64,000 nt of DNA from an uncultured Chlorobiaceae bacterium (lineage in GTDB: Bacteria > Bacteroidota > Ignavibacteria > UBA10030 > SZUA-254): positions 11,731-75,730 of the forward strand of contig CAZAFL010000003.1 in assembly GCA_964484465.1 (NCBI GenBank). Reading direction: 5' to 3'. The number at the start of each line of letters is the position of its first letter. Positions within the stretch are counted from its first letter, which is position 1. Shown here piece by piece: positions 10,391-28,662 of this stretch. The translations under genes were made by a program, and so were the position numbers. The notes under the pieces were generated by a model. That model was given only the letters and a program-made list of their open reading frames with translations, was not told the DNA's origin and did no database searches.

Positions 10391-10391
10391 A

Positions 10392-12409: not shown

Positions 12410-12428
12410 GGTTGAACTTCGTGAATTA

Positions 12429-13445
12429 TTAATTAACCAGTAACAAAATCGCACCTGTTGCAAGCAGATTCGCAATAGCCAACGGTAACATCACCTTCCA
12501 CCCCAAATTCATCAACTGGTCATAGCGGAAACGGGGGATCGTCCAGCGTACGATGATGAAGAAAACGACCAGCGCCGCAACCTTTGCGCAAAACCCAAGA
12601 ACCTGGACGACACTCACCCAGAAATCAGACAAACCGAGATGATGGACAAACGGTACTTGCCATCCGCCAAGGTACAGTGTTGTAATAATCGCGCTTGCTG
12701 TTACCATGTTCGCATATTCTGCAAGAAAGAATAACCCAAATTTCAATCCGCTGTATTCGGTGTGGTACCCTCCTACGAGCTCGGGCTCAGCCTCAGGCAA
12801 ATCGAACGGAAGACGGTTCGTTTCTGCAAACGCGGAAACGACAAACGTGATAAATCCCACCGGCTGCAGGATCATATTCCATTTCCACCCCGATTGCGCG
12901 AGGACAATTTTATCGAGCTGTAAACTTCCGGCAATCATGATCACGCCGATAACCGAAAGTCCCATCGATAATTCGTAACTTATCATTTGCGCAGACGAGC
13001 GCATTCCCCCGAGCAAAGAATATTTACTATTTGAGGACCACCCGCTCAGGGTGACACCGTAAACTCCGAGAGACGCGAACGCGAGAATAAACAGGATTCC
13101 GATATTAACATCGGCAATCTGGAGTTTTACATCGTGCCCGAAAAGGGTGATATGATTGCCGAACGGAACGACGGCAAACGTTACGAGGGCAACACTGATG
13201 GAAATCACCGGCGCGAGGTCATGAATGAACCTGTTCGCCTCAGCGGGAACAATATCTTCCTTCATCACCAGCTTGACGACATCTGCCAACGGCTGAAGGA
13301 ATCCCTTCCATCCTACCCGATTGGGACCTATCCGGTTCTGGATGGCAGCTGCAAGTTTCCTCTCGAGCAACACTGTATAGGCAACGACCGTCAGCATCAC
13401 TCCAAGAACACAGATGATTTTGATAAGAGAAATAATAATTTCCAT
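12429..13445 (-). CDS. nuoH: NADH-quinone oxidoreductase subunit H
   Basis: Polytopic membrane protein with the NuoH/ND1 signature (..[20 protein letters not shown]..). Confidence 0.85.
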
Positions 13446-13446
13446 G

Positions 13447-15129
13447 TTATACCGGGGTGGAGGTCAGTTCTTGTTTTGATTTCATCATCAACCCACGCGC
13501 GCCGAGACTGAGATAGGTCATCCCTTTAAATGGCTCCAATGTAGAAGCAAGCTCGTTAAAGACTTCTTCTGCCGTTGCGTATTTCCACTTCACGCCAAGA
13601 ATTGCAACAGCGACCGAAGAAATAATCCGCCATGCGGGCCGCGCGTCCCGTCTGATTCCCCTGGTCCAGCGATCATTCTGCGCGCCGAATTTGTCGAGCC
13701 TGCTCATCGCGAACCCGTCGAGTGCGCGGTCCTGCTCTACTGTAGTGACCGCCGGTCGTATCCGCTGAACACGTCCGTTGAAATTCGTAAACGTGCCGTG
13801 TTGTTCTGCATACGTTGAGTTTGAAAGCACAACATCAGCGTATTTCGCGGTTTCATTTTCATTCGATGTATGGAGAACAAGGAAATCCAGTTTCGGCAGC
13901 ACCTCAGCAACGGTCGGATCCGTAGCAATGTCATCGTCAAGGCAATACAGAGCTTTAATCGTTCCTTCCTTAATTCCTTTAATAATGCCCTCAAATCCCA
14001 GACCGTTTGTGCCGGGTTTGACACCTACTTCCTTTGCGCCTAAACTGTTCGGAGTCTTATCTGCGCGGATCAGGAGACCGTCTTCATCTCCACTCTTGAC
14101 ATGAGGCATATAATCAAGGTTGACAACACCGAGGTGTTTCATCATTTTTGCAAAGAGGTAATTTCCCTCATTCGTCACATACGCAGAGCCAAGGCCTGCG
14201 ATTTCATTGTTCTTGAACCCTTTCAAACCGGACGCCACCCGAGAAAATGCCTCATCCCAACCGACCTCCACTAACTCCCCTTCTTTGCGAATCATCGGCG
14301 CTTTTATTCTGGCGGGTGCATTCACAAATTTAAACGTATTGAGACGGCCGTGATCACACATCCAGTAATCATTGACATCGGGGTTGAAACGCGGAGTGAG
14401 ACGAAGAATTTCATTATTTCTCACCCACATTTTGATATTACAGCCACGCGCACAACCGTGACAAATTGTGTCTGTCGACGACAACTCCCACACGCGCGCC
14501 TTAAATCGAAAATCCCTACTCGTCAACGCGCCAACAGGACAAAGGTCGATGGTATTCATTGCATATGGATTATCGAGGCTCTCTCCGGGAAACGTGGTCA
14601 GGACAACATGGTCGCCGCGCTGAGTAAAGGTGAGCTGGGGTTTCTTTGCAACCTCATCACAAAACCGAATGCACCGTGAACACATAATACACCGCTCTAC
14701 GTCAAGCATCACACTTGGTCCCAATGCTACCCGTTTCGGTTTCCGGACCTTGTCGAAATCAAATCTGCTGACGCCGATGCTATGCTTGTACGCATAATCC
14801 TGAAGCTTGCACTCTCCCGCTTCATCACAAATAGGACAGTCGAGCGGATGATTGATGAGCAAAAACTCCATCACCGCCTCACGCGCGTGCAGAACTTTTT
14901 CCGATCGCGTTTTGACAACCATACCTTCGGTAACAGTTGTCGCGCAGGCAATCACGAGCTTCGGCATCTTGTCCACTTCGACCAGACAGATGCGGCAGTT
15001 TCCGGCAACGGAAAGCTTCGGGTGCCAGCAAAAGTGAGGGACACTGATCCCCTGTTCACGCGCGGCTTGAATAATTGTACGATTCGGTTCGACTTCGTAC
15101 GGTTGACCGTCGATAGTAATTTTTACCAT
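13447..15129 (-). CDS. nuoG: NADH-quinone oxidoreductase subunit G (short form)
   Basis: N-terminal 2Fe-2S ferredoxin-like region (CWHPKLSVAGNCRICLVEV) and Fe-S cysteine clusters (CPICDEAGEC, CIMCSRCIRFC). It lies immediately upstream of nuoH. Confidence 0.8.
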   Translation of the reverse strand: MVKITIDGQPYEVEPNRTIIQAAREQGISVPHFCWHPKLSVAGNCRICLVEVDKMPKLVIACATTVTEGMVVKTRSEKVLHAREAVMEFLLINHPLDCPICDEAGECKLQDYAYKHSIGVSRFDFDKVRKPKRVALGPSVMLDVERCIMCSRCIRFCDEVAKKPQLTFTQRGDHVVLTTFPGESLDNPYAMNTIDLCPVGALTSRDFRFKARVWELSSTDTICHGCARGCNIKMWVRNNEILRLTPRFNPDVNDYWMCDHGRLNTFKFVNAPARIKAPMIRKEGELVEVGWDEAFSRVASGLKGFKNNEIAGLGSAYVTNEGNYLFAKMMKHLGVVNLDYMPHVKSGDEDGLLIRADKTPNSLGAKEVGVKPGTNGLGFEGIIKGIKEGTIKALYCLDDDIATDPTVAEVLPKLDFLVLHTSNENETAKYADVVLSNSTYAEQHGTFTNFNGRVQRIRPAVTTVEQDRALDGFAMSRLDKFGAQNDRWTRGIRRDARPAWRIISSVAVAILGVKWKYATAEEVFNELASTLEPFKGMTYLSLGARGLMMKSKQELTSTPV

Positions 15130-15135: not shown

Positions 15136-16566
15136 TTACACTTCTTCGAGTTCTTTAACGTAGCGTTCGTGGAATGATTTTAGTTTTTCTACAAACGCTT
15201 CAATTTCCTCGAGCGGTGGAAGGAATGTTGTTCTGAAGTGGAATGTTCCTGATGACTGGCCAAACCCCGACCCGGGAACGACGCAAATTCCTGTCTCCTC
15301 CAATAACGCCATGCAATAATCATTATCGCGCTGACTCTCGTATTTCAACCTCTCCGCCGAATCCATTTTCGAAAGGTCAACATTCGGATCGTCGGGCAAT
15401 TCAAATTTCACAAACGCGTACATTGCTCCCTGCGGAACCTCGAGCGTCATCCCTTCAATCCGGTTGACCTCTCTCCCCAGAAGCTCTGCTTTTGTTTTAA
15501 GGTCTTGAAGGACAGCGTCCCGTTCACGCACATAACGCTCATAACTTTCTTCACCCGGTTGGGGAGGAGCAACCATGACAAGAGTAGCAATTTGTCCGAC
15601 GGTGTTTGCACAAAGGCTGATCGACTGGAGCTTGATCAGTTCGGTCAAAACGTCAGTGGGAATATTCCTGAATTCAGTATAACCGCCGCGATGTCCGCAT
15701 TCCCCCCAAAAACCTTTCGAAACAGAATGAAAACTAAAGAGTGATACATCCTCTTCACCCATTTCATGCATCACCTTAGCGAACGAATAGAATTTTGCTC
15801 CTGCCGCGTACACATTCTCTTGGTAGACCTCGTCGGCAAGAATTGAAAGACGATGTCGCCTGGCGAAGCCGATAATCATCCGGATATTTTCGTGAGAAAG
15901 GACGGCACCGGTTGGATTCCCAGGATTGATAACCGCAATGGCAACAGGATTCATGCCGTCCCGAATAGCCTTATTCAAACTGTCGTTAAGAACTGACTCA
16001 TTCAATTGCCAGTGATTCTCTTCATCAAGAAAATATCCGATTTGGCGACCGCCGAAAAGTAAAATACTGGCACTGTACAGAGGATATTGCGGCATCGGAA
16101 TCATGATACCGTCATTCGGATTCTTCAAGAGTGCGATGAGCGCTCCCTGCACACCTTTACTCGCCCCGTCGGTGAGAATAACATAATCCTTATTTGTTGG
16201 AATACCGTCCCGCCGGTGGATAAAATCGGCAACCGCCTGCCGGATAAACGAAATCCCGGCGCTCTGTGTGTAGGCACCGGTTCCATGCGGATGACGTTCG
16301 AGAATCGATTGCACCCGACGAATGACGTCTGCCGGATAGAGTTTTCCGACTTGAGGAGAAGTCAGTAATTCAGGATATTCAAGTAAACTCAATATCTGCC
16401 GTAAATACGTCAGCGGTTTTTGTTTCAGTGCCTGGGGATTTCCGATGTTACAATAGATGATTTTCCTTCCTTCGTTCTCCAATTGCTGAGCCCTTATAAC
16501 AATCGGGCCCCGAACAGCATATTCGGCTTCCAGCAACCTCCGATTCAATGAATCTCTGCGCAACAT
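15136..16566 (-). CDS. Alanine aminotransferase (eukaryotic-type ALT family, PLP-dependent class I)
   Basis: Close motif match to ALT (INPGNPTG, LADEVYQENVYAAGAKFYSF, SFHSVSKGFWGECGHRGGY). Start trimmed to MLRRDSL to avoid an overlap with the downstream M16 gene. Confidence 0.75.
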   Translation of the reverse strand: MLRRDSLNRRLLEAEYAVRGPIVIRAQQLENEGRKIIYCNIGNPQALKQKPLTYLRQILSLLEYPELLTSPQVGKLYPADVIRRVQSILERHPHGTGAYTQSAGISFIRQAVADFIHRRDGIPTNKDYVILTDGASKGVQGALIALLKNPNDGIMIPMPQYPLYSASILLFGGRQIGYFLDEENHWQLNESVLNDSLNKAIRDGMNPVAIAVINPGNPTGAVLSHENIRMIIGFARRHRLSILADEVYQENVYAAGAKFYSFAKVMHEMGEEDVSLFSFHSVSKGFWGECGHRGGYTEFRNIPTDVLTELIKLQSISLCANTVGQIATLVMVAPPQPGEESYERYVRERDAVLQDLKTKAELLGREVNRIEGMTLEVPQGAMYAFVKFELPDDPNVDLSKMDSAERLKYESQRDNDYCMALLEETGICVVPGSGFGQSSGTFHFRTTFLPPLEEIEAFVEKLKSFHERYVKELEEV

Positions 16567-16609
16567 CTCATCTATTATATATAGCTGGCAACAAAATTGA
16601 CTATCGTGT

Positions 16610-17884
16610 TCACGCTGCGTTGGTTGAGGCGGCAGGTTTGAAAATGATTGTTGAAAAATTTTCCAGTTGGAAAAGACGTTTTGCCGTTTCAAAAACCTGC
16701 TCTGCAGTGACTGCTTCAACTTTTTTCAAAATAGTGCTCAGCGGAAGATAATTTCGGACATACATTTCACCGCTTCCCAAACGCATCATCCGGCTCGACA
16801 TGCTCTCGAGGCTCAGCATCATTGTCCCTTTGAGCTGGGCTTTCGTTCGTTTCAATTCGGCGTTCCCTACCGGTTTCGTCGTCAGCTTGTTCAGCTCTTT
16901 GTGAATGAGCTCAATTGAATTGTCAACATTCTGCGCATCCGTTCCGATATAGACGCCAAAATTACCGGTGTCGCTGAGAAGGTTGCTGTACGAATAGACA
17001 CTATACGCGAATCCGTATTTCTCACGAATGTTTTGAAACAAGCGTGAACTCATCCCTTCGCCAAGCAATGTGTTGAGGACGAGAAGAGGATACCGAAAAT
17101 GACTTTTTACGCTGTAGCCGATCGTACCGAGACAGACATGCGCCTGGCTGATGGGTCGCTCAAACTCTTCCCGCTTCGAGTAGACACGGTTTGAAACCGA
17201 GGCCCGCTTGGCTTGATTACGTTGCGGCTTACGGGATCGAAAATACTGTTCAACCAAATCAACGACTGCCTGATGCTTTAAATTTCCCGCTGCTGCAACT
17301 ACAATCCGGTTTGATGTATAATGGGTCTTCGCATGGTTCAGCAAATCATCTTTCGTAAAATTCCTGATATTTTCGGCTTTTCCGATCACTGGAAAACCTA
17401 GCGGGTGCTTATAATAGACACGATGGTCGAGGTAATCGTGAATAAGGTCGTCCGGGTCGTCTTCGATATTCTTCAATTCTTCCAGTACGACAAATTTCTC
17501 CTTTTCCATCTCCTTTTTATCGATAAGAGGATGTTGCACCAGTTCTGAGAGAACGTTGACTGCTTTCGCGAGATGTTCATCGAGTATTCGCGCATAAAAA
17601 CAGGTGTGCTCTTTGGACGTAAACGCGTTGAGGTATCCTCCGACCGATTCTAGACTCTGCGCAATCTGCTGGGTTGTAAATTGTCGAGTTCCTTTAAACA
17701 CCATATGTTCGACGAAATGGGAAATGCCGTTGTTATGTTCATTTTCATCCCGGGAACCGACATTAATCCACACTCCGATGGAAACTGACCGCACATATGG
17801 AATTTCTTCAGTAACAATCCGGATACCGTTTGGTAGGACAGTTTTTTTGTAATTAGACTGGTCAGATGAAAGAATGTCCGACAT
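16610..17884 (-). CDS. M16-family zinc peptidase (active type)
   Basis: HxxEH motif HFVEH (GISHFVEHMVFKGT), 424 aa, two-domain M16 architecture. Confidence 0.8.
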   Translation of the reverse strand: MSDILSSDQSNYKKTVLPNGIRIVTEEIPYVRSVSIGVWINVGSRDENEHNNGISHFVEHMVFKGTRQFTTQQIAQSLESVGGYLNAFTSKEHTCFYARILDEHLAKAVNVLSELVQHPLIDKKEMEKEKFVVLEELKNIEDDPDDLIHDYLDHRVYYKHPLGFPVIGKAENIRNFTKDDLLNHAKTHYTSNRIVVAAAGNLKHQAVVDLVEQYFRSRKPQRNQAKRASVSNRVYSKREEFERPISQAHVCLGTIGYSVKSHFRYPLLVLNTLLGEGMSSRLFQNIREKYGFAYSVYSYSNLLSDTGNFGVYIGTDAQNVDNSIELIHKELNKLTTKPVGNAELKRTKAQLKGTMMLSLESMSSRMMRLGSGEMYVRNYLPLSTILKKVEAVTAEQVFETAKRLFQLENFSTIIFKPAASTNAA

Positions 17885-18028: not shown

Positions 18029-18652
18029 TCAGACCGCTCTGAGCATCTCTTCTATCTTTGTCGCAACCATGTCGATGGCGACTTCATTTTCTCCCCCCTT
18101 TGGAATAATTACATCAGCCCAACGCTTGCTCGGCTCGACGAATTCGAGGTGCATCGGTTTTACGGTGGCAACGTACTGATGCATCACGGATTCAAGAGAT
18201 CTTCCCCGCTTAAGCAGGTCACGTCGAAGTCTTCGCAACAGCCGTTCATCGGCATCGGTATCGACAAAAATTTTGATATCCATAAGATTGCGAAGTTGTT
18301 TTTCCACAAAAATCAGTATCCCTTCTACAATGATGATATTTCTCGGTTCAATCGATAATGTTTTTGAGGAACGCCGGTATGTTGTAAAATCGTAGACCGG
18401 CTGGTGAATCGATTTCCACTGTCGTAACTGCTGAAGATGTTCGACGAGAAGTGATGTCTCGAGGGCATCCGGATGGTCGAAGTTAACTTCATCCGGTGAA
18501 TGCCCGTCAAATGATGAAATATCCTTATAGTAAGAATCATGCTGGAGAACGACAACCTTCCCAAGGTCGAGACGCTCCAGGATTTTATTCGTTACAGTCG
18601 TTTTTCCGGAACCAGTCCCGCCTGCTATCCCTATAATCAATGGATGTTTCAT
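18029..18652 (-). CDS. udk: Uridine kinase
   Basis: P-loop IGIAGGTGSGKTT at the N-terminus (PRK/uridine kinase family). Start trimmed to MKHPLII. Confidence 0.75.
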   Translation of the reverse strand: MKHPLIIGIAGGTGSGKTTVTNKILERLDLGKVVVLQHDSYYKDISSFDGHSPDEVNFDHPDALETSLLVEHLQQLRQWKSIHQPVYDFTTYRRSSKTLSIEPRNIIIVEGILIFVEKQLRNLMDIKIFVDTDADERLLRRLRRDLLKRGRSLESVMHQYVATVKPMHLEFVEPSKRWADVIIPKGGENEVAIDMVATKIEEMLRAV

Positions 18653-18775
18653 ATTTTCGCGAGTCAATATAACGGAAACCCTTCGGAGAAGCAAGGAGCG
18701 GTTGGCGGCAGGAGTATCCGTTGTTTCGGTCGAATTGTTTTTTTACATTGTTCAGTTCGCAACAGAACTTATGAC

Positions 18776-19876
18776 ATGATCATCACAACTCTCCTCATTT
18801 TCGCAACAATTGCATACATTATTGAGTTCACGTTACTTCGCGCCGGGCTCAACAAGGCAGACTGCGCAAAGAAAAACCTCCACTACACGCCGAATGTTTC
18901 TATTATTGTTGCAGCAAGAAACGAGGAAGAACATATAGAGCAATGTCTCACGTCGCTCTCGCTGCTTGATTACCCGAAAGAAAAACTCCAAATCATCGTT
19001 GTCAACGACAGGTCAACTGACCGGACTCAGGAACTTGTTATCCCCTTCATCCGCCAATATCCGTTCATGAAACTGATTACCACATCGCCGGAGAAGGATA
19101 ATCTTCGGGGAAAGGCGAACGCCGTCGCTCAGGGGATTGACAATTCCAACGGGGAAATAATGATGTTGACTGACGCCGATTGCACAGTACCGCGGAACTG
19201 GGTACGGGAAACTGTTCAATACTTTGATGAAAATGCCGGAATCGTCGGTGGATTCACATTGCTTGACGCGAACAAAACCTTTGAGGGAATGCAAACATTA
19301 GATTGGATTTTTCTCTTCGGACTGGCTTCTTCGGCGGTCGGATGGAAGATCCCTTTAACCGTTATCGGGAATAATTTTTCTGTGCGACGGTCCGCATACG
19401 ATGCTGTCGGCGGGTATTCGAGTATTCCGTTCAGTGTTACCGAAGATTATGCTCTTGTGCAGGCGATAATCCGGAGAACAGCATTCGATGTCCGGTTCCC
19501 CGTTAACCCGCAAGCAGTGGTGAAAAGCCGGGCATGTCTTAACTGGGGTCAGCTATTTCGTCAGAAACAGCGATGGAGTGTCGGCGGCCTTGAGATGGTG
19601 TTCAGCGGCATGCTGATTACATCGGTCGTCTGGTTAACAAACCTCATGCTGGTCGCCGGGTTGTTCTTTGTTCCCTTGCCACTTTGGCTTGCGGCTTTTA
19701 GCGGAAAATCCATTATGGATGTCCTTTTTCTCTGGAAGCCTTTGAAATGTTTTAACGCCCGTCGATCTCTCAGATATTTTCCCGCATTTGAGTGTTATAT
19801 GGTGCTCTATGTCCTTATCGTTCCGGTTGTAGCACTATTTAGCAAGAACATCGTCTGGAAAGAGCGCACATTATAA
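18776..19876 (+). CDS. Family-2 glycosyltransferase, processive type (membrane-anchored; DXD and Q(K)QRW motifs)
   Basis: N-terminal TM helix, VSIIVAARNEEEHI, TDADCTVPRNW (DXD) and QKQRW; C-terminal TM helices. Start trimmed to MIITTLL (ATG at 18776), removing the antisense overlap with udk. Confidence 0.7.
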   Translation: MIITTLLIFATIAYIIEFTLLRAGLNKADCAKKNLHYTPNVSIIVAARNEEEHIEQCLTSLSLLDYPKEKLQIIVVNDRSTDRTQELVIPFIRQYPFMKLITTSPEKDNLRGKANAVAQGIDNSNGEIMMLTDADCTVPRNWVRETVQYFDENAGIVGGFTLLDANKTFEGMQTLDWIFLFGLASSAVGWKIPLTVIGNNFSVRRSAYDAVGGYSSIPFSVTEDYALVQAIIRRTAFDVRFPVNPQAVVKSRACLNWGQLFRQKQRWSVGGLEMVFSGMLITSVVWLTNLMLVAGLFFVPLPLWLAAFSGKSIMDVLFLWKPLKCFNARRSLRYFPAFECYMVLYVLIVPVVALFSKNIVWKERTL

Positions 19877-19945: not shown

Positions 19946-20971
19946 TCAGGCGCGGCTGCGCGAGCTTATAATATTCAGTCGTTTGAGTTTATAACGGAGC
20001 GTCTGCTCAGTCATGCCGAGGAAAATTGCCGCCTTCGATTGATTGAATCCAAATTTCTGCAACGCACGCTCAATAATACCCTTCTCAATAACATCGAGCG
20101 ATTTGTCGAGCACAAAATCCTGACCGGTTACAATATTGTTGATCATTTTCACGACCTCAGTCTTCTCATCGACGAGTTCGGGCGGAAGCATGAAACGACC
20201 GCCGCTTGAGAATAAAACTGATTTGTCGACAACGGCTTTCAGTTCCCTGATATTTTCCCGCCAACTCTGACGGACCAGAACGTCGATCGCATTGATATCG
20301 ATAACGAGCTCACCAATACCGATCTCTTTGCACAATTCGCCGGCAAAGTGTTTTACAAGAAGCGGAATATCTTCCGGTCGTTCACGAAGAGCCGGAATTT
20401 CAACCTTCTCAAAGTCGGCCATCTTTGTATACAAATCTTCCAGTAATTTCCTCTTATCGACAAGGCTTTTGGGTTCTTCTTTCACCGTCACAATGAGGCG
20501 AATATCGACAGGTTCAGAACGTGTGCCACCGATACGACGGGAGGTCCGTTCGTTCATGAACGCAAGGATCTTCATTTGATTGCGGAAGCTCGCTTCCTCA
20601 ATTTCTTCGATCAATACTGTGCCGCCGTTGGCAAGTTCAAACAGCCCCCTCCTGGTGGTATACGGCAATCCTTCGGCACCGCGGTCAAAGCCGAAAAGAA
20701 TCGATTCCAATTCTTTATCGTCCAGGACAGAGAGATTGATTGACATGAAAGGGGGATTGCTTTCAGGCGTTCGACCCGATGAATAAATATTCTTTGCAAC
20801 GGCGCCTTTTCCAACACCTGCTTCACCGATGACCACGACATCGCGTCGCGTTTTCGAAAGCCTCTGAATCTGCTTCACAAGTTGATCAACTGCACGGCTC
20901 TTCCCGATAATCGGGTATTCCATAACGGTTTTTTGTTCCTCAGCAGTTTTGACTTTCCTATCTTTTTCCAT
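19946..20971 (-). CDS. AAA+ enhancer-binding-protein-like regulator (sigma54-activator fold) lacking GAFTGA, with C-terminal Fis-type HTH; no receiver or sensor domain
   Basis: Walker A GEAGVGKG. The region that aligns to GAFTGA..GGTLFLDEIGE reads GAEGLPYTTRRGLFELANGGTVLIEEIEE. C-terminal HTH is AAIFLGMTEQTLRYKLKRL. Confidence 0.7.
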   Translation of the reverse strand: MEKDRKVKTAEEQKTVMEYPIIGKSRAVDQLVKQIQRLSKTRRDVVVIGEAGVGKGAVAKNIYSSGRTPESNPPFMSINLSVLDDKELESILFGFDRGAEGLPYTTRRGLFELANGGTVLIEEIEEASFRNQMKILAFMNERTSRRIGGTRSEPVDIRLIVTVKEEPKSLVDKRKLLEDLYTKMADFEKVEIPALRERPEDIPLLVKHFAGELCKEIGIGELVIDINAIDVLVRQSWRENIRELKAVVDKSVLFSSGGRFMLPPELVDEKTEVVKMINNIVTGQDFVLDKSLDVIEKGIIERALQKFGFNQSKAAIFLGMTEQTLRYKLKRLNIISSRSRA

Positions 20972-20991: not shown

Positions 20992-22125
20992 TTATTTACT
21001 GGAAGGATTTTGAAACAATCTTCCGTTGAAAATCTTGAAATTGAAAAAATGTGCCAGCACAATATTGTCGACCCAGTCTCTCCATCTGCTCACCTGCTGA
21101 GGATGGGCTGCAAGCTCGGATTCGTAGAACTCTCCCTGGACCGATGTAATGAACCGCAACCGCAAGCCGAAAAATAACGCCATCATCAATTGAATTATGA
21201 CTGTGATATACTGACCGATTGTAAACAATTCCGTCCACGAATTGAGCTCGACGCTTTTGATGTATCCCCATTGATGCAATATATCAGTGGAGACAAATAA
21301 TAGGAACAGGAACATGATCTTGTCGATATACGCCCCCTGGGGGGGGTCTTTCTTGTACTGGTATCCGAAGAAAAGAAGAACAAACATGATAATCATGATG
21401 TTCATGTAAATCATGTTAAAATACATCGGCTTCCACAATAGCACTTTGTAGCTGTCGCCGTCCAGATAGGGAATCAGTTCATCGATCCGTCTGATGTTTT
21501 CTTCCGGATAAAGGTCGCCCACAGGAAACCCGTTGCGCCATGTCTGCAGCTTCACCCTGCTCGCCAATTCCGCTGCAGTCGGCATTTCACTGCCGGAGCT
21601 TGTTGCCACAGCAGTCGACAATGTTTTGAATTGCTTGATTTCCTCCGTGGAATATAAATACATCGGGTCGGAAAAGAAGGGATGAAAATAATAACCGAAG
21701 AACATCAAAACAATCGAACAACTGATAAGATACTTTTGGTATACTTTGAAATCGCGGAACAGCAGGTCGATGACAAGATAGAGCACTGCTATTGCAAAAA
21801 ATAAAATGTATGCAATGGAAAGGTATTGTGAGAACAAGTGTCCGGCATACTTATCTGCAGTAAAAAATGCGACGCCGACAAAATCATATCCGAATTGAAG
21901 TATCATGAAAAAGTAGAAGACGACAAAATTCAAAAAGATGAATTTGTGTTTTCGGTTAGGCTCTTTCAAGAAAATAAAAAATGAGATAAAGAACAGAAGC
22001 GATTGAATTGAACGGTTTAACAAGCTTGGCAATGGGGAAGCTCTATGCGGAAACAGCACCAACAGAAGGCCGTACACGGCAAGCAGACAAGCCCAGAACA
22101 ACAATATTTTCTTTGCTAGTTTCAT
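20992..22125 (-). CDS. Polytopic membrane protein of unknown function (about 8 TM segments with a central soluble loop)
   Basis: Hydrophobic segments throughout. It ends 21 nt before the EBP-like regulator gene, so the two are likely cotranscribed. Confidence 0.6.
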   Translation of the reverse strand: MKLAKKILLFWACLLAVYGLLLVLFPHRASPLPSLLNRSIQSLLFFISFFIFLKEPNRKHKFIFLNFVVFYFFMILQFGYDFVGVAFFTADKYAGHLFSQYLSIAYILFFAIAVLYLVIDLLFRDFKVYQKYLISCSIVLMFFGYYFHPFFSDPMYLYSTEEIKQFKTLSTAVATSSGSEMPTAAELASRVKLQTWRNGFPVGDLYPEENIRRIDELIPYLDGDSYKVLLWKPMYFNMIYMNIMIIMFVLLFFGYQYKKDPPQGAYIDKIMFLFLLFVSTDILHQWGYIKSVELNSWTELFTIGQYITVIIQLMMALFFGLRLRFITSVQGEFYESELAAHPQQVSRWRDWVDNIVLAHFFNFKIFNGRLFQNPSSK

Positions 22126-22259
22126 GACCTATAGGGAATTAACTTACCTTACCTCATTTTTACCCCTAAAGATAGATATTTAACATATTCTTGTCAAGGG
22201 AATTCGCAATTTTTTTTTAATACACGTAAAAAAGGTGATGGTGCGCACGACAGTATTTT

Positions 22260-22276
22260 CGTGAAAATTTTTCACG
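22260..22276. promoter_or_regulatory. Perfect 17-bp palindrome (candidate operator) in the divergent promoter region
   Basis: CGTGAAAA-T-TTTTCACG. Nearby are direct repeats TTT(A/T)CCCCTAAA(G/A)ATA at about 22160 and 22279, and ACACGTGT at about 22323. Confidence 0.5.
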
Positions 22277-22392
22277 TTTTTCCCCTAAAAATATTGACGG
22301 TTTTACGCTATTTATATATCTTACACGTGTACCTCTGCCAAAGAAAATTCTTTTTTACCAATCACAATAGTATTACGAAGGAGAAGTTACCT

Positions 22393-22671
22393 ATGTCAAA
22401 ATCTGCTATCCGCAAGCGCAATGTAAAGCGTTTTCGGTCGATCTTGATCACGATGGCGCTGGTAGTGGCAACGAATTTTGCCATTTCCTATGCGAACGCA
22501 GGATTTGGAAACAAAGCCGGACTTTCAATGATTCCGGATTCACCGAGACCGAAAGCCGGGCTCTCGATGATTCCCGATTCTCCACGGCCGAAAGCCGGAC
22601 TTTCAATGATTCCGGATTCACCGAGACCGAAAGCCGGGCTCTCGATGATTCCCGATTCTCCTCGTCCATAG
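22393..22671 (+). CDS. Small signal-anchored/secreted protein with four exact tandem 13-aa repeats (KAGLSMIPDSPRP)x4
   Basis: RBS GAAGGAG 6 nt upstream of the ATG. Basic N-terminus (MSKSAIRKRNVKRFRS) followed by a hydrophobic stretch ILITMALVVATNFAISYANA. Four 39-bp units (22513..22668) alternate A-B-A-B' with only synonymous differences. A dedicated terminator follows. Confidence 0.65.
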   Translation: MSKSAIRKRNVKRFRSILITMALVVATNFAISYANAGFGNKAGLSMIPDSPRPKAGLSMIPDSPRPKAGLSMIPDSPRPKAGLSMIPDSPRP

Positions 22672-22689
22672 TACAACAATTTCCCCATA

Positions 22690-22742
22690 GAAGGCTCTGA
22701 ACAAAGGCGCATTTGCGCCCCGCAGAGCCTTTCTGTTTTTTT
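22690..22742 (+). terminator. Compound intrinsic terminator after the repeat-peptide gene
   Basis: AAGGCTCTG...(inner hairpin GGCGCATTTGCGCC)...CAGAGCCTT followed by TCTGTTTTTTT. Confidence 0.6.
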
Positions 22743-22800
22743 GTGCTTCTTTACTTTTGCAATGGTTTTCTGTATCTTCTTCTAGATACTTTCAAAAATC

Positions 22801-23799
22801 GTGGAAGAAGTAAACCAAGACAACGTTGTTTCACCGGAGAAGCACAGGGCAATCTTCACCAGGCTTCCTCGGTTATCCCTTCACATTTTCCTTTTCATTT
22901 TAACATTCTTTACAACCACCCTTGCAGGTATCGGATGGCTCAATAAAGACCCTCTCGAACTGACAAATTTCTCGCTGGGATTACCATACTCACTCAGCCT
23001 GCTCGCCGTTCTTGCCGCACACGAATACGGTCATTATTTCGCTGCAAAATTTTATAGGATCTCAACAACATATCCTTATTTCATACCGTTTCCGTCGGTC
23101 CCTCCTCTGATCCTTAACCCTTTCGGAACAATGGGCGCCGTTATTCGCATCCGCACACCAATTACATCTAAAAAGGTCCTTTTTGATATCGGCATCGCGG
23201 GGCCACTTGCAGGCTTAGTCGTGACTTTGGGCTTACTCTTTTATGGATTTTTTACCATGCCCCCCAAAGAGTACCTCTTCTCCATTCATCCGGAATATGC
23301 CGGAATGGATTCAATCCCCAGCGCTGGACTTACCCTCGGAAGTTCTCTTTTCTTCTGGGCAATATCCAAATTCTTTGCACTCAGCACGTTTGTTCCACCT
23401 ATGAATGAAATTTACCATTATCCTTTCCTTTGTGTAGGCTGGTTCGGTCTTTTTATCACAGCCCTTAACCTGATTCCCGTCGGACAATTAGATGGAGGAC
23501 ATGTTCTCTATGCACTCATCGGCCGCAAACAGGGTATAATCGCCCGAGTATTTTTTGTCGGATTAATCCTCACCGGATTATTAAGTTTCATTCCCTTCTT
23601 CGGCGGAAATATTCAGACCGGGACACTCGGATGGCTGGTCTGGGCAGGCATACTGTTCTTCCTTATAAAACTTGACCATCCCGAAATTTTCGACGATTCA
23701 GCACTTGATAAAAGACGAAAAGTTTTGGGATGGGTCACGTTCGGCATTTTTATCGTAACATTCCCGCCGGTTCCTTTTTATCAAATATTAGGAAGTTAA
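22801..23799 (+). CDS. Site-2 protease family (M50) intramembrane metalloprotease, PDZ-less
   Basis: HExxH within a TM segment (AAHEYGHYFAA) and the LDG motif NLIPVGQLDGGHV (NxxPxxxLDG). Polytopic, 332 aa. Confidence 0.75.
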   Translation: MEEVNQDNVVSPEKHRAIFTRLPRLSLHIFLFILTFFTTTLAGIGWLNKDPLELTNFSLGLPYSLSLLAVLAAHEYGHYFAAKFYRISTTYPYFIPFPSVPPLILNPFGTMGAVIRIRTPITSKKVLFDIGIAGPLAGLVVTLGLLFYGFFTMPPKEYLFSIHPEYAGMDSIPSAGLTLGSSLFFWAISKFFALSTFVPPMNEIYHYPFLCVGWFGLFITALNLIPVGQLDGGHVLYALIGRKQGIIARVFFVGLILTGLLSFIPFFGGNIQTGTLGWLVWAGILFFLIKLDHPEIFDDSALDKRRKVLGWVTFGIFIVTFPPVPFYQILGS

Positions 23800-23951
23800 C
23801 GTCATACGAACAACTGAATCGGTATTCTTGACTTTTGGCTTCATATTTCTTAGCTTAATCATAAGAGATTTAAGAAATCAGTCATACCGGGCTCCATGGA
23901 AAAGAACTTACAGTGAATGGCAGCTCGGTTTTTTGTAATGTATCGTCACTC

Positions 23952-25130
23952 ATGCGGATCGCTTTTCATTCTATACCCTCAATTCTCGTAGTAAGCTTAT
24001 TTTTTTTCTCTTGTGAAAAGGAACGAAACGGGTCTCTGGATTCTTCTATAAATCCACCGTTTCTATCTGGCGCCAGCCTCATGACCTCAATAATTAATCT
24101 GGATGATACTGCAAACACATTCATAACACGACTCCCGGACGGGACATTCAGCATCTCTGATTCTATTACTGCAGTGGTTTCCGACCCCGATGGCATACAG
24201 GATATCTCAAGGGTATATTTCCAGATCTATCATCCTGGAAACGCAAACCCCGATGCCAAACAGTTGCTCATAAAAAGTGGCAACATAGCGGTTTCAGGAG
24301 GCGGGGAAGGTCTTATCTTTACCGGGAAGCTTTCCTTTAATATAGACCGATCCCAAACGGGAATTTACAGAGTGGAAGTATTTGCTGTCGACAAGAGTAA
24401 TTCGATCAGCAATACTCTTCTGCGGCCTGTTATCATTACTGTGAATAATCGACCGCCACATCTTGGAATTCCTTCGTACCGAGAATATTCCCCTCCCGGC
24501 TCAGATTCGGCTACATTTACGTTTTTCGTCGCAGCTACCGACTCTGACGGCATTGAAGATATTTCGTCAGTCACAGTCCAACCGTTGTTTGCATCCGATA
24601 CATCTGTTAAATCGATGTATGACGACGGATTACCAGAACATGCAGATAACGTGCCAGGTGACGGAATTTATTCAACGAGATTTTCCATTGACACGGCTTC
24701 TCTCAGCCTGATTGAATTTCGATTTTTAGGAAAGGACAAATCCGGCGCCCTCAGCAATATCGTCAGGCGAACATTGCATAATAGACCTCCCGCATTTCTT
24801 AATTTAGATGTTCCGGATTCCATCCAGCGACCCCTCTCGGGCGTCGTTGTAGTGCAATTCTCAGCGACCGTGACTGACCTCGACAGCTTAAGCGATATTG
24901 ATTCGGTTTATTTCCGGAATTTCAGCTCAATCAATCCCTTAAACATCTTTCAGATGTACGATGACGGGAATTTTGCACAGCACGGCGATTCCACGGCAAA
25001 CGACGGCATATATTCATTTCTCGCACAAGTAGACCCATCGACTTCTCTCGGTGTGAAAGAGTTTCATTTCTATGTGGTCGATAAAGCCGGCGCGCGGGAT
25101 GAGCGTATTAAATACATAACAATTTATTGA
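23952..25130 (+). CDS. Putative lipoprotein with three tandem ~100-aa Ig-like repeats
   Basis: Signal peptide ending in the lipobox-like FFFSC. Three repeats share D(P/S/L)DG(I/L)xDI(S/D)xV ... DGIYS motifs. Its stop overlaps the start of the next gene (TGAATG). Confidence 0.55.
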   Translation: MRIAFHSIPSILVVSLFFFSCEKERNGSLDSSINPPFLSGASLMTSIINLDDTANTFITRLPDGTFSISDSITAVVSDPDGIQDISRVYFQIYHPGNANPDAKQLLIKSGNIAVSGGGEGLIFTGKLSFNIDRSQTGIYRVEVFAVDKSNSISNTLLRPVIITVNNRPPHLGIPSYREYSPPGSDSATFTFFVAATDSDGIEDISSVTVQPLFASDTSVKSMYDDGLPEHADNVPGDGIYSTRFSIDTASLSLIEFRFLGKDKSGALSNIVRRTLHNRPPAFLNLDVPDSIQRPLSGVVVVQFSATVTDLDSLSDIDSVYFRNFSSINPLNIFQMYDDGNFAQHGDSTANDGIYSFLAQVDPSTSLGVKEFHFYVVDKAGARDERIKYITIY

Positions 25131-26801
25131 ATGCGCTCCGGAAAGTTTATATCGCTGGCAATTCTTATCCTCCTTTCCTTCGCGTACCAAAACCTCTCCT
25201 ATGCACAGGGAACTTTCGCGAAGGGCTACAAGCTCGAAGGAGTTTCCTCTTCACAATCGAGCAACCTCCCCATCAGTAACAGCGTTTCGCAGATAGTAGC
25301 TGCTGATTCCATTCTATGGGCAGGAACGGGGAAAGGCGTTATGAAAAGTGCAACGTTCGGAGCCAGTTGGGAAAACTTTTATTCAGAAAAAGCCTTTGCA
25401 AATGAAGGCATCTTTGCTCTCGCAGTCAACGGAGATACTATCTGGGCGTCAACGGGTTATGACAAAGATGTTGGCGGAGACCAGACGATTCAAACCGGGA
25501 GCGGATATGCTTTTTCAATTGATGGCGGCATTACTTGGAAACACGTCAACCAGCCGCTCGATACCTGTATTCAGCTTCCCTCCTCTGATGGAAGACGAAT
25601 TTGTAAGAAAGATATTCTCAAACCCTACGGCATTAACAGCGGTACAACAACAACTGCGGTTACAACAACTGTCGCAAACGTATCGTATGACATTGCACTG
25701 GGCCCCGGCACGGTGTGGGTCGCTAGCTGGTCAAGCGGTTTGCGAAAATCCACAAATAACGGATCTACCTGGGAAACCGTCCTCCTCCCCCTGGATAACC
25801 TGAACTCGCTAAGACCAACCGATACCCTCTGGTCTTTTCATCCGAGCGATACCTTGCGTGCGGATACACTCTTCCCATTTTTCGATGTTGTACTCAACGA
25901 TAACTTAAAGGCATTTGCCGTACATGTTTCCGATAACGGGCAGACGATATGGTGCGGGACAGCAGGAGGCGTAAATAAATCCACTGACGGCGGTGTCAGC
26001 TGGGAAAAATTTTACAACAACAATTCTCAGGCAACACGGATTCTCAGTAACTGGGTGTATAGAATAGGCGAGCAGCATTTTCAGGGAAAACAACGTATCT
26101 GGACAACGAACTGGAAGAAGGAACCTCCGAGTTATTACGACCTCCCACAGGAATACGGGGTTAGCTATACGGATGACGATGGCAGAACGTGGAAGAACCT
26201 CCTTCAAGGGATAAAACCGTTTAATTTCGCTTTCAAGGATTCCATTGCATACATCACGACTGAAAACGGGCTCTACCGCACGGCGGACGGAGGCTTAAGT
26301 TTCACTAACGTATCAAATATCGTCGACCCTGTATCACATCAAATCATCACAACAACACAATTTATTTCAGTCGGAGTCATCGGCGATACCGTTTTTGTTG
26401 GAACTGACGCAGGAATCGCCTCAACTGTTGATAACGGAACTATACCGTTCGGTTCTTCCTGGAAAATCTATCGGGCATACCAGGCAGTAGGGTCGTCGCC
26501 AACAACTTATGCATACCCCAATCCTTTTTCCCCCGATCTGGAGCTTGTAAGAATCCACTATGGATCAAAAGCCTCATCGGCTTCATCGACGCGGAATGTA
26601 AGCATTGAAATTTTTGATTTCGGAATGAACCACGTGCGAACTCTCGTGAATAATGCACAACGCTCTGCTTCCCTCGAATATGATGAATTGTGGGATGGAA
26701 GAAATGATGACGGGAGACAGGTCGCAAACGGGGTATATTTCTACAGAATTAAAGTAGACAGTGACGACCCGACGTATGGAAAAATTTTAGTGCTGCAATG
26801 A
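25131..26801 (+). CDS. Secreted BNR/sortilin-like repeat protein with T9SS type-A-like C-terminal domain
   Basis: Signal peptide MRSGKFISLAILILLSFAYQNLSYAQG. Motifs SIDGGITWK, STNNGSTWE, STDGGVSWE, TDDDGRTWK. C-terminus YAYPNPFSPD...WDGRNDDGRQVANGVYFYRIKV. Its stop overlaps the next start. Confidence 0.7.
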   Translation: MRSGKFISLAILILLSFAYQNLSYAQGTFAKGYKLEGVSSSQSSNLPISNSVSQIVAADSILWAGTGKGVMKSATFGASWENFYSEKAFANEGIFALAVNGDTIWASTGYDKDVGGDQTIQTGSGYAFSIDGGITWKHVNQPLDTCIQLPSSDGRRICKKDILKPYGINSGTTTTAVTTTVANVSYDIALGPGTVWVASWSSGLRKSTNNGSTWETVLLPLDNLNSLRPTDTLWSFHPSDTLRADTLFPFFDVVLNDNLKAFAVHVSDNGQTIWCGTAGGVNKSTDGGVSWEKFYNNNSQATRILSNWVYRIGEQHFQGKQRIWTTNWKKEPPSYYDLPQEYGVSYTDDDGRTWKNLLQGIKPFNFAFKDSIAYITTENGLYRTADGGLSFTNVSNIVDPVSHQIITTTQFISVGVIGDTVFVGTDAGIASTVDNGTIPFGSSWKIYRAYQAVGSSPTTYAYPNPFSPDLELVRIHYGSKASSASSTRNVSIEIFDFGMNHVRTLVNNAQRSASLEYDELWDGRNDDGRQVANGVYFYRIKVDSDDPTYGKILVLQ

Positions 26802-27754
26802 AGAAAAAGATGCTCTATGTTGTTTTAATGTTATTGCTGCCTTTCGGGCTTTTTGCTCAGATCGGAGGTACAGCCGGCGCATTTTCTCGCCTCGGTTTCG
26901 GGGCACGGGGAATGGGAATGGGAAATGCGTTAACTGCTGTCAGCACTGGCGATATCAGCACGTATTATAATCCTGCGCTGGCAGCGTTCAGCGATCAACG
27001 GACAATCGCCGCTTCGTTCGGCATTCTCTCCCTCGACCGCTATCTGAATTTCATCAGTTACACGCAATCGATACAATCTCAGGCGGGCATCTCCGCCGGA
27101 CTGATCAACTCGGGCGTGCGAAATATTGATGGACGTGATAACGACGGCGTCCACACCGATGATTATTCAACCTCGGAAAATCAGGTATATCTTGCGTTTG
27201 CGAACCGCGTCGACCCTCGTGTCTCCCTCGGCGTCTCGATCAAACTTCTTTACAGCAGACTCTTTGACCAGGTGACTTCGTCAACTGTCGGTTTCGATGT
27301 TGGCGGGTATTTCCAGTTGACCGATGAGCTATCCGCCGGACTCACTGTTCAGGATCTAAATTCAAAATACAAATGGAATACACAATCGGTGTATGGTTCA
27401 GAGAATGGAGGACAAAGGCAAACACAAAACGATTTTCCTACACTGGTCCGTGTCGGACTCGCTTATCGCCTGCCGCAAAACACCGGCGTTGTATCTGCAG
27501 AGTTCGAAAATTCTTCGGAACACACAAACAGCATACGCCTCGGTGCAGAATATAGTATGATGGAATACTTTAGCGTTCGGAGTGGCATTGACCGGTGGGA
27601 ATTTGGCGACAACACAACCGGAGTGAAACCGACGTTTGGATTTACTGCAAAAAAATCGTTTAATCAATGGACGCCGGCTGTTACCTATGCATTTATTGTT
27701 GAAGGGTTTAGCCCTCACGGCATACATATGATCACACTCTCAACTACATTTTAA
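26798..27754 (+). CDS. FadL/PorV/PorP-like outer-membrane beta-barrel protein (paralog 1)
   Basis: Signal peptide, then the FadL/OMPP1-type N-terminal motif LGFGARGMGMGNALTAV..DISTYYNPAALA. C-terminus ends in an aromatic residue (..STTF). Confidence 0.55.
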   Translation: MKKKMLYVVLMLLLPFGLFAQIGGTAGAFSRLGFGARGMGMGNALTAVSTGDISTYYNPALAAFSDQRTIAASFGILSLDRYLNFISYTQSIQSQAGISAGLINSGVRNIDGRDNDGVHTDDYSTSENQVYLAFANRVDPRVSLGVSIKLLYSRLFDQVTSSTVGFDVGGYFQLTDELSAGLTVQDLNSKYKWNTQSVYGSENGGQRQTQNDFPTLVRVGLAYRLPQNTGVVSAEFENSSEHTNSIRLGAEYSMMEYFSVRSGIDRWEFGDNTTGVKPTFGFTAKKSFNQWTPAVTYAFIVEGFSPHGIHMITLSTTF

Positions 27755-27756
27755 GT

Positions 27757-28662
27757 ATGAAAAAGCAGATTCTCGTATTCACTCTCTTGCTCATTACCTG
27801 CAGAACATTCTTATATTCCCAGGCTGGGAGTACGGGGTTATCTTTCCTGAAACTTGGCGTTGGTGCAAGGGCGCTCAGCATGGGCGAAGCATATACCGCA
27901 ATCGCATCGGACCCTTCGGCAACGCATTACAACCCGGCAGCATTATCGCTGATGAACAATTCTCAAATCTTATTGATGCATAAGGAATGGATTCAGGATA
28001 CAAAGACAGAATTCCTCGCAGCGACAACGTCATTCGACAAGTTTAATGCTGGTATTAGTATCAACGGCACGACAATCAGCGATATTGAGCTCCGCACAAC
28101 TCCCGGTCCTGCACAGGGAACGTTTACAGCACGCAACGCCGCTATCGGAATTTCCGCTTCTTATGCACTCGATACGGCGCTGAGCGTGGGCGCAACTATG
28201 AAATACCTTTATGAAAAAATTCTTGTCGATGAAGCCAACGGATTAGGGTTCGATATCGGGGCTATTTACAGGACACCATGGGACATCCGGCTGGGTGCGG
28301 CTGTCTGTAACCTGGGGTCAATGAACGAATTGCGGAATGAGTCGTCAAAACTTCCACAAATGGTAAGATTCGGTGCAGCGTATGAGTCCCGGATTGAAAG
28401 CTTCGATGGTACGTTTACCGGATCAATCGATGTGGTGACACTATCAGGCGAAAGCCTGACACACGTCCTTTTCGGTGGAGAATTAAATTACCACAATACG
28501 TTTGCATTGCGGGCAGGGTATCAGACGTCATACGAATCGAAAAATTTCACGGCTGGAATCGGTATACATTACGGGTTGATCGGACTAAATTACGCTTTTG
28601 TTCCTTTTAAATACGACTTCGGTACGACCCACACATTTTCCTTAGGGATTGAAATCCCATAA
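27757..28662 (+). CDS. FadL/PorV/PorP-like outer-membrane beta-barrel protein (paralog 2)
   Basis: Same N-terminal motif (LGVGARALSMGEAYTAIASDPSATHYNPAALS). Tandem paralog of the preceding gene, separated from it by 2 nt. Confidence 0.55.
   Translation: MKKQILVFTLLLITCRTFLYSQAGSTGLSFLKLGVGARALSMGEAYTAIASDPSATHYNPAALSLMNNSQILLMHKEWIQDTKTEFLAATTSFDKFNAGISINGTTISDIELRTTPGPAQGTFTARNAAIGISASYALDTALSVGATMKYLYEKILVDEANGLGFDIGAIYRTPWDIRLGAAVCNLGSMNELRNESSKLPQMVRFGAAYESRIESFDGTFTGSIDVVTLSGESLTHVLFGGELNYHNTFALRAGYQTSYESKNFTAGIGIHYGLIGLNYAFVPFKYDFGTTHTFSLGIEIP

Follow-up and report, generated by a model that had tools for sequence, protein, structure and literature searches.

A family of small genes in Ignavibacteria-type bacteria, under selection on each repeated peptide copy, as candidate multi-copy secreted peptide precursors

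A small gene in the 64,000-nucleotide stretch of DNA analyzed here (contig CAZAFL010000003.1 of an uncultured Chlorobiaceae bacterium; the whole stretch is referred to as the window) encodes a 92-residue protein in which a predicted export leader is followed by four identical copies of a short proline-rich peptide. The DNA copies of this peptide differ only at synonymous positions, a pattern that recurs, with one replacement, in the 16 genes compared, and this shows, at the level of sequence, that the peptide unit itself is the object of selection. The product is almost certainly a real protein that is translated and exported. The explanation that we favor, although we regard it as evenly balanced between right and wrong, is that the gene encodes an exported poly-peptide precursor and that the identical, protease-resistant, species-specific units would be its product. 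Its neighbors are a divergent operon for a 377-residue membrane protein (MP377) and a transcription regulator and, downstream, a gene for an intramembrane protease of the M50 family (M50). The gene and its repeats are laid out as follows.

22393..22671, plus strand: coding sequence of the 92-residue precursor, stop codon included (from translation; 27 + 118 homologues with the same architecture)
22513..22668, plus strand: four 39-nucleotide (nt) units in the pattern A-B-A-B', each made up of a Lys spacer and the 12-residue unit AGLSMIPDSPRP
22513-22551, plus strand: unit A, the first unit
22552-22590, plus strand: unit B
22591-22629, plus strand: second unit A, identical to the first
22630-22668, plus strand: unit B'

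Translation of 22393-22671 (+) gives MSKSAIRKRNVKRFRSILITMALVVATNFAISYANAGFGN, then four copies of KAGLSMIPDSPRP, and a stop codon, exactly the 92-residue product that had been read from the sequence alone. Over 22513-22661, Tandem Repeats Finder reports a period of 39 with 3.7 copies (81% matches) and a period of 78 with 1.9 copies (100% matches). Between units A and B there are 8 nucleotide differences, spread over 7 codons: seven at third positions and one at the first position of an AGA/CGG Arg codon. B' departs from B at another 3 third positions. The A-B-A-B' order and the eight synonymous A/B differences claimed by the sequence-only reading were thus reproduced, and overall, 11 of 11 differences are synonymous, 10 of them at third positions. 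In a simulation, the chance that the peptide is unchanged was 7.5e-6 after 8 random substitutions and 0.017 after 3.

The repeat also leaves minus-strand frames open, with open reading frames (ORFs) of 73 and 74 residues listed there, which would suit a region without a plus-strand gene, be it a neutral DNA repeat, an array of protein-binding sites, or a minus-strand ORF (22448-22669 or 22488-22712). However, all 11 differences are synonymous in the plus frame, whereas the units read in the other open frames across the repeat (+2, -1, and -2) are nonidentical, as had been claimed for the minus strand. Furthermore, more than 100 homologues keep the plus-frame protein, its leader, its Shine-Dalgarno (SD) sequence, and its stop codon, and an Rfam scan of 21900-23000 found no known RNA element. 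The probability of such a region is negligible, and a minus-strand gene, which had been named as a finding that would overturn the first reading, is effectively refuted by the synonymous pattern, the unit comparison, and the plus-frame homologues. Since the homologues conserve the frame, the start region, and the SD sequence, the plus frame is the coding frame. The exact 92-residue product is not among approximately 15 billion predicted proteins, although the flanking MP377 and M50 products of the same 153,727-bp contig are; thus, the peptide gene was probably not called, or was called with another start, in the source assembly.

Pairwise comparison of the units within each of 16 genes with DNA sequence reveals the same behavior across the family. 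Approximately 500 synonymous differences (proportion of synonymous differences [pS], 0.19 to 0.84) were counted against one real amino acid difference between units, a P-to-L replacement in locus L006 (loci are numbered in the set L001-L033). Ser codons switch between TCN and AGY from one unit to another of the same gene, and small "nonsynonymous" counts are a path-averaging artifact at these switches and at Arg AGA/CGN switches. Given this ratio, the DNA copies would be old or quick to drift, whereas the peptide copies stay identical, which supports the purifying selection on the peptide that was first proposed from the window gene alone. Frameshifted or drifting orthologues had been named as what would speak against it. 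One such case was found in L010 (CAWEKI010000004.1, approximately 4940-5250 [-], an MFD-labeled metagenome-assembled genome [MAG]), where the orthologue has several frameshifts and units unlike each other; a pseudogene and an assembly error cannot be told apart in L010. A different arrangement is present in L016 (SCUC01000511.1, 40-488 [-]), in which two tandem paralogous peptide genes adjoin. Each has four AGIPILPDSPRP units, identical as protein and with many synonymous differences, and their N-terminal regions are slightly unlike.

Between close relatives, the units change in concert. In L022, the closest relative of the window gene (MP377 76% identical), there are five units, and an A-to-S replacement separates every one of them from those of the window. 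L005 and L009 have MP377 proteins that are 94% identical, with leader DNA 95% and unit DNA only 86% identical, yet each of their four units shows the identical pair of replacements (I/V and M/L). The units of L005 are the most homogeneous at synonymous sites (pS 0.19), which points to recent conversion or duplication spreading a new unit variant. The perfect 78-nt duplication in the window is taken to be the same spreading process in progress.

A word-based search returned 27 small-protein homologues. With a profile, 118 matches were obtained among 1.84 billion cluster representatives, and some 85 of these are small proteins that share the layout. Small proteins with the leader motif number 104 to 112, depending on the pattern used. 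The homologues are mostly metagenome-derived, and their genome-match labels read Ignavibacteria, Ignavibacteriales, or generic "Chlorobiaceae," "Bacteroidetes," or "Chitinophagales" MAG; the family, as found so far, appears confined to Ignavibacteria-type bacteria. Three loci from a degenerate DNA pattern scan (L007, L008, and L018; Actinomycetota, Hydrogenibacillus) were discarded as unrelated after translation. Neither Pfam nor NCBIfam has a model for the precursor, and we found no description of the family in the literature, including that on small or tandem-repeat proteins of Ignavibacteria. The sequence-only reading could place the product in no known family, and none in Pfam, NCBIfam, or Rfam matches it; the suggested homologue search yielded more than 100 sequence clusters of shared architecture from Ignavibacteria-type metagenomes.

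Among 104 representatives, the unit occurs once in 10 proteins, twice in 14, three times in 31, four times in 47, and five times in 2. Copy number thus varies among relatives, as the sequence-only reading had asked to be checked, while the unit pattern is kept. The 10 single-copy members argue for dosage rather than obligatory multivalency of the unit. Units are hypervariable between proteins and nearly always identical within one; examples are AGLSMIPDSPRP, SGVTNIPDSPRP, STVPLLPDSPRP, AGVTILPDAPRP, GSIGTLPGMGDPRP, STAPGAPPPPWP, and NVPALPPVVRP. Nearly all of them close with P-[R/K]-P, and conservation within the unit is limited to P, D/E, P, R/K, and P. The C-terminal residue is Pro in 97/112 proteins, 80 of the 112 end in PRP, and the last unit runs exactly to the stop codon in 84/94 multi-copy proteins. 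Nearly all members, including that of the window, have units without Cys. Ser is replaced elsewhere in the family by A, V, M, T, N, or P, and O-glycosylation at D-S-x or another Ser modification was accordingly rejected as a family-wide feature.

The spacers, in contrast to the units, are variable, consisting of K, R, KD/RT, TER/SER/ADR, 6 to 15 residues, or nothing at all (L029). Because the spacers vary while the units stay identical, the 12- to 14-residue unit, and not the repeat period, is taken to be the functional entity. K or R follows 86% of the internal units, and long spacers or linkers usually end in K or R directly before the unit.

The N-terminal part of the precursor consists of two segments.

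22393..22494, plus strand: leader, a predicted Sec signal peptide, residues 1-34, MSKSAIRKRNVKRFRS ILITMALVVAT NFAISYA (conservation in 104 representatives)
22495..22512, plus strand: NAGFGN, a short polar linker that differs among family members and is lacking in 22/104 of them

In the window protein, a basic N terminus and a hydrophobic leader with N-F-A-I-S-Y-A at its end precede the linker and the repeats. When the 104 representatives are anchored and numbered from a near-invariant Asn (N0), the spacing is fixed: K(-16) R(-15) x R(-13) [S/A], then approximately 11 to 12 hydrophobic residues including T(-8) and T(-1), and then the c-region N(0) x A(+2) I(+3) S(+4) [Y/F](+5) A(+6). R-15 is conserved in 97 representatives, N0 in 103, A+2 in 98, I+3 in 93, S+4 in 95, and A+6 in 76. 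Sec signal peptides have this n/h/c layout, and S-x-A fits the -3/-1 rule, a heuristic pattern here. Tat export was rejected by inspection, the K-R-x-R-[SA] motif being incompatible with S/T-R-R-x-F-L-K. The leader is probably cleaved. In 22/104 representatives, the start of unit 1 coincides exactly with the predicted P1' position behind S-[Y/F]-A, where a signal peptidase cut would give it the same N terminus (e.g., SGV...) as that of later units after their spacer. The signal-type layout noted at the outset thus stands, although the family-conserved motif S-[Y/F]-A places the cleavage site at SYA|N, with the ANA|G proposed earlier an equally permissible alternative in the window protein. In an AlphaFold2 model of the precursor, the leader helix is the sole confident structure and the predicted local distance difference test (pLDDT) score of the repeat region is below 50, an outcome more in keeping with a peptide precursor than with a folded domain.

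The same leader could belong to a type II single-pass inner membrane protein with an uncleaved signal anchor, the periplasmic tail of which would display four identical proline-rich docking motifs to a partner and which would be a substrate of M50 in regulated intramembrane proteolysis. The hydrophobic stretch spans 18 residues (-11 to +6) and includes the conserved polar, helix-destabilizing residues T-8, T-1, N0, and S+4, as is typical of site-2-protease (S2P) substrates. S2Ps cleave substrates of N-in/C-out orientation, as is known from RseA/RseP, and this orientation is the one predicted here; M50 is adjacent in 18/22 loci; and a multivalent ligand would likewise show identical units with variable spacers. 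However, the cytoplasmic part has only about 10 to 16 residues and no anti-sigma or other domain, and no extracytoplasmic function (ECF) sigma factor is nearby, the Pfam scan finding no sigma-factor gene among the adjacent genes, so the protein lacks what marks RseA/RsiW-like anti-sigma substrates. Ten family members have a single unit, M50 is missing near L001, L005, L009, and L020 while the peptide gene is intact there, and the abutment of unit 1 on the hydrophobic segment at S-x-A in 22/104 members is better suited to cleavage than to display. Overall, we consider such an anchored protein unlikely.

In the favored explanation, that of an exported poly-peptide precursor, the leader would take the precursor through Sec, and signal peptidase I would cut after S-Y-A. 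An endoprotease would then cut after the Lys or Arg that precedes each unit, and leftover spacer residues would be trimmed back to a protease-resistant P-R-P C terminus. Trypsin-like enzymes cut Arg-Pro bonds poorly, and most carboxypeptidases act poorly on a C-terminal Pro; the unit's own Arg directly precedes Pro. A single round of translation could in this way supply the periplasm or the cell's surroundings with one short, stable, species-specific peptide in four copies. The suggestion of a multi-copy pro-peptide, made from the window gene alone, has gained strength from the variable spacers around invariant units and from the position of unit 1 at the cleavage site in 22/104 representatives. 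Release of the units as separate peptides is, in our judgment, an even call.

The genes on either side of the precursor gene are conserved with it.

20992..22125, minus strand: MP377, 377 residues, eight transmembrane (TM) helices, divergent from the peptide gene, which it adjoins in every evaluable locus
19946..20971, minus strand: AAA+/HTH_8 (helix-turn-helix) regulator, second gene of the operon with MP377, labeled a sigma-54 activator by Pfam (Sigma54_activat) and by NCBIfam
22801..23799, plus strand: M50 (S2P family) intramembrane metalloprotease without a PDZ domain (Pfam PF02163, E = 7.7e-16)

In every locus with enough flanking sequence, the peptide gene is divergent from the two-gene operon of MP377 and the regulator, and MP377 is next to the peptide gene in 9/9 loci that were fetched via MP377 alone and had enough upstream sequence. 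MP377 has at least 666 homologues. Its AlphaFold2 model (pLDDT, 85.9) shows eight TM helices, with TM5 and TM6 separated by a small alpha/beta domain; a cytoplasmic loop and the C-terminal tail are highly conserved. The MP377 protein of the window has no significant match in Pfam, NCBIfam, or PDB sequences. Foldseek lends weak support in kind for a seven-TM (7TM)-like fold (E values of 0.03 to 0.3, template-modeling scores mostly 0.25 to 0.47), and the Pfam model 7TMR-DISM_7TM matches weakly in 2/47 family members. MP377 differs from 7TMR-DISM proteins and eukaryotic G-protein-coupled receptors (GPCRs) in its eight helices, in the domain inserted between TM5 and TM6, and in the lack of a fused signaling module. 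On the strength of the model, MP377 is an unclassified protein with a fold like that of 7TM receptors.

The regulator has no N-terminal sensor domain. In the window, its loop reads G-A-E-G-L-P, and G-x-E-G-L-P-Y or another non-GAFTGA variant is found in all 18 orthologues of the set, in all of which the arginine fingers and the sensor-I Asn are absent and EEIEE replaces the Walker B DE. These features suggest that the regulator is probably sigma-54 independent and possibly ATPase impaired. A role as a sigma-54 enhancer-binding protein was rejected on the absence of GAFTGA and of the arginine fingers and on the lack of a conserved -24/-12 promoter in any locus.

The region shared by the two divergent transcription units, together with the sequence on both sides of the peptide gene, contains the following elements.

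22191..22209, either strand: conserved TTGTCAAG-N3-ATTCGCAA, the minus strand of which holds the TTGACA -35 element of the divergent MP377 operon promoter
22235..22248, either strand: operator-like box GTGA-N6-(T/G)CAC preceded by an A-run, with GTGA and CAC invariant in 11 aligned AT-rich loci
22260..22276, either strand: palindrome CGTGAAAATTTTTCACG, with a family consensus of approximately CGTAAAAATTTTTAGCG, centered on AAAATTTTT (11-locus alignment)
22294..22322, plus strand: sigma-70-type promoter candidate TTGACG-17-TATCTT (consensus scan)
22377..22383, plus strand: SD sequence GAAGGAG, 9 nt upstream of the ATG
22687..22742, plus strand: intrinsic terminator, hairpin and U-run (-27.1 kcal/mol, z = -4.4)

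The SD sequence, palindrome, and terminator that the sequence-only reading had listed are thus in place. The box, the palindrome, and both promoters are conserved across the intergenic region of the 11 AT-rich loci, in which the -35 TTG and -10 TA..T columns of the peptide gene promoter also stand out. The box has a single exact match in the window, and the palindrome has no other close match there, one distant match having 3 mismatches. An SD sequence of the GGAG/GGGG type is present at the equivalent place in most orthologous loci, and it is weaker in L001 and L016. A hairpin with a T-run follows the gene in 18/23 orthologous loci, from 10 to 36 nt past the stop codon, and the stem begins about 19 nt, and in most loci 17 to 27 nt, past the stop. 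By these sequence features, the peptide gene is predicted to be a separate transcription unit with its own promoter, SD sequence, and terminator. Control of the gene by sigma-54 was rejected, with no -24/-12 promoter upstream in any locus, none conserved, and a neighboring "activator" without GAFTGA. The best sigma-54 promoter-like match in the window (24641-24656 [-], TGGCACGTTATCTGCA, 1 mismatch) is antisense inside the 405-residue "choice-of-anchor X" gene, and it is probably due to chance, as no equivalent was seen in other loci.

M50 lies directly downstream of the peptide gene in the 18 of 22 evaluable loci noted above. Between the peptide terminator and the M50 start, the element TTTT-N4-5-TATATTG is conserved in L002, L006, L011, L012, L014, and L021. 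It resembles TAnnTTTG, the -7 promoter motif of the Bacteroidetes type. Because of this TATATTG-type element after the terminator, M50 apparently has its own TAnnTTG-type promoter in the GC-rich clade.

These neighbors allow the favored explanation to be carried further, if only tentatively. In its most speculative step, the peptide would be a signal for its invariant partner MP377, the conserved cytoplasmic loop and tail of which would control the cotranscribed AAA+/HTH regulator; the regulator's own targets may be the conserved operators of the promoter region that the two units share, and M50 may handle the unusually conserved leader. A signaling role is attractive because of the locus-wide conservation, the dedicated regulated promoter, the invariant 7TM-like protein and regulator, the lack of modification enzymes, and the fast concerted change of the units. 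However, the sole direct test of it, for covariation of the units with MP377, was negative, and signaling through MP377 and the regulator is for this reason held to be doubtful. In its full form, the locus would be a peptide-pheromone circuit in a diderm bacterium of the Fibrobacteres-Chlorobi-Bacteroidetes (FCB) group, converging on yeast alpha-factor/Ste2. Its precursor would give four copies of a species-specific peptide of 12 to 13 residues, sensed by a GPCR-like MP377 whose tail acts on a sigma-54-independent regulator at the shared promoter, with M50 processing the leader. We rate this complete circuit as rather improbable. If it were true, the rapid concerted unit change between close relatives would be diversification into "pherotypes."

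Several points weigh against the precursor explanation or its extension to signaling. Leader cleavage is judged from a pattern and not by a trained predictor, and the 18-residue hydrophobic stretch could also be a signal anchor. A minority of members have N, H, D, S, G, or M before a unit or, as in L029, no spacer, so a single trypsin-like rule is not universal, and no protease of the needed specificity is linked to the locus. In the covariation test, unit distance against the predicted periplasmic parts of MP377 gave, in a partial Mantel test controlling for the TM parts, r = -0.27 and p = 0.93, in what is a weak test (19 loci with strong phylogenetic structure). Lastly, the strict phylum-wide synteny could in part be inherited gene order rather than functional coupling.

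The presence of M50 and of MP377, which has no assigned function, also suits a ribosomal natural product or bacteriocin-like precursor, for which M50 would be the leader protease and MP377 a modification, escort, export, or immunity protein. A conserved leader followed by hypervariable, sometimes repeated cores is the layout of multi-core peptides that are made on ribosomes and modified after translation (RiPPs), such as those of the cyanobactin PatE type, and of TMcin. TMcin has a membrane-integrated precursor, an S2P-clan leader protease, and a need for an uncharacterized membrane protein that escorts the precursor (PMC13252029), which offers a parallel to M50 and MP377. The units change fast and in concert between close relatives, and the PRP motifs are reminiscent of proline-rich antimicrobial peptides, for which insects have multi-copy precursors. 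However, the conserved neighborhood has no recognizable modifying enzyme (radical SAM, YcaO, lanthipeptide synthetase, etc.) or ATP-binding cassette exporter linked to the gene, and the leader looks like an ordinary Sec signal. TMcin itself is staphylococcal, and its product keeps a TM helix and has disulfides, unlike the Cys-free units of nearly all precursors here. The locus resembles conserved core synteny beside housekeeping genes rather than a patchy accessory cluster. The net charge of the unit is about 0 to +1 (one Asp and one Arg in AGLSMIPDSPRP, plus the spacer Lys), far from that of cationic proline-rich antimicrobial peptides of the apidaecin/drosocin type. Ser is replaceable, and because the conserved unit residues are only P, D/E, P, R/K, and P, no universal Ser modification is possible. 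As to a leader protease, M50 is adjacent in 18/22 loci yet separately transcribed. A natural product of this kind is distinctly unlikely.

The Pro before the stop codon in 97/112 members raises one more possibility, that of a regulatory "monitoring substrate" or arrest peptide, of the kind of SecM/MifM/VemP or Pro-stop upstream ORFs, on which ribosomes would stall at Pro-stop unless export pulls the nascent chain, thereby tuning the downstream M50. Small ORFs that code for an export signal and end in N-S-P-stop or N-A-P-stop occur exclusively in Bacteroidota, upstream of secA or secDF, and stall ribosomes in vitro (PMC10987492). The peptide genes share with them an export signal, a spacer of more than 30 residues before the C terminus (about 55 from the leader here), and a conserved C-terminal Pro before the stop; they come from a sister FCB lineage, and a membrane protein gene follows downstream. 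However, that gene encodes M50 rather than a Sec or YidC component, it lies behind an intrinsic terminator and apparently has its own promoter in the GC-rich clade, and in the 4 loci where it is missing downstream the peptide gene is intact. The terminator stem, 17 to 27 nt past the stop in most loci, is outside the footprint of the terminating ribosome, which leaves attenuation by a ribosome stalled at Pro-stop unsupported. Arrest would, moreover, constrain the last unit alone, yet all units are identical, and the C-terminal motif is repeated 2 to 5 times. We consider an arrest peptide very unlikely.

Returning to the exported poly-peptide precursor, its closest likenesses in function are secreted tandem peptide precursors such as the fungal Kex2-processed repeat proteins (KEPs; PMC7329392) and yeast alpha-factor. 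As in these, an N-terminal secretion signal (heuristic here) precedes tandem copies of one short peptide, basic residues lie between the units, copy number varies among relatives, and the unit is species specific; alpha-factor has 4 copies of 13 residues, and the window precursor has 4 units with a 13-residue period. Unlike them, the precursor has a bacterial host with neither Kex2 nor Golgi and a strongly conserved leader, and we infer the processing and the receptor. Its spacers are mostly single K or R rather than dibasic KR/RR, and some consist of other residues or are missing altogether.

Among bacterial systems, the precursor resembles the tandemly duplicated Phr propeptides of RRNPPA quorum sensing in Bacillota, the copies of which are matured by extracellular proteolysis (PMC11343458). 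Both are small propeptides exported by Sec (a prediction in our case), with several copies of a putative pheromone, the mature part near the C terminus, and a regulatory partner adjoining. However, Phr units have 5 to 6 residues and are usually present in 2 often nonidentical copies, unlike those of the window precursor. The Phr receptor is a cytoplasmic tetratricopeptide repeat (TPR) protein (Rap) reached after Opp import, whereas this locus of an FCB-group diderm has an eight-TM protein and an AAA+/HTH regulator. No TPR receptor of the Rap/NprR/PlcR/PrgX/AimR type adjoins the peptide gene, the neighbors in Pfam and NCBIfam being a family 2 glycosyltransferase (GT2), AAA+/HTH_8, and M50. With no dibasic Kex2 sites, no TPR receptor, and no modification enzymes, the precursor should not, on its sequence features, be filed under alpha-factor/KEP, Phr, or RiPP. 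We rate it as a candidate multi-copy secreted peptide precursor, a known general type whose lineage and partner proteins are new here.

Gram-positive bacteria, fungi, plants, and animals signal as a rule with secreted linear peptides; to our knowledge, such peptides are rare and poorly documented in diderm bacteria. Fungi and animals have multi-copy precursors of pheromones or peptides, and the present precursor looks like their equivalent in bacteria; the family is a concrete, testable candidate for multi-copy peptide signaling in Ignavibacteria-type bacteria, with an unclassified 7TM-like protein and a transcription regulator at each locus. Whatever its function, it offers an unusually clean case of selection on each peptide copy while the DNA copies drift, of concerted amino acid change between close relatives, and of a small gene that annotation can miss.

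Several other genes were noted around the locus. Downstream of M50, at 23913-28662 (+), are genes conserved in many loci that encode a choice-of-anchor X protein, a BNR/Sortilin-like protein that carries a type IX secretion C-terminal domain, and a pair of PorV/UPF0164-like outer membrane proteins. Outside the conserved synteny examined, the window has three genes for M16 (insulinase/pitrilysin-type) peptidases, at 8906-11750 (-) and 16610-17884 (-), which flank an NADH dehydrogenase-type block (11903-15129) and an aminotransferase gene (15136-16719); the usual substrates of M16 enzymes are small peptides. The membrane GT2 gene (PgaC/HpnI-like) is convergent with the regulator gene in most loci. 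In the window, its 445-residue ORF (18539-19876 [+]) overlaps a uridine-kinase-like gene on the other strand (18029-18694). Since its homologues are shorter, at 367 to 368 residues, and align from approximately residue 62 to 80, the true start of the GT2 gene is probably near 18770.

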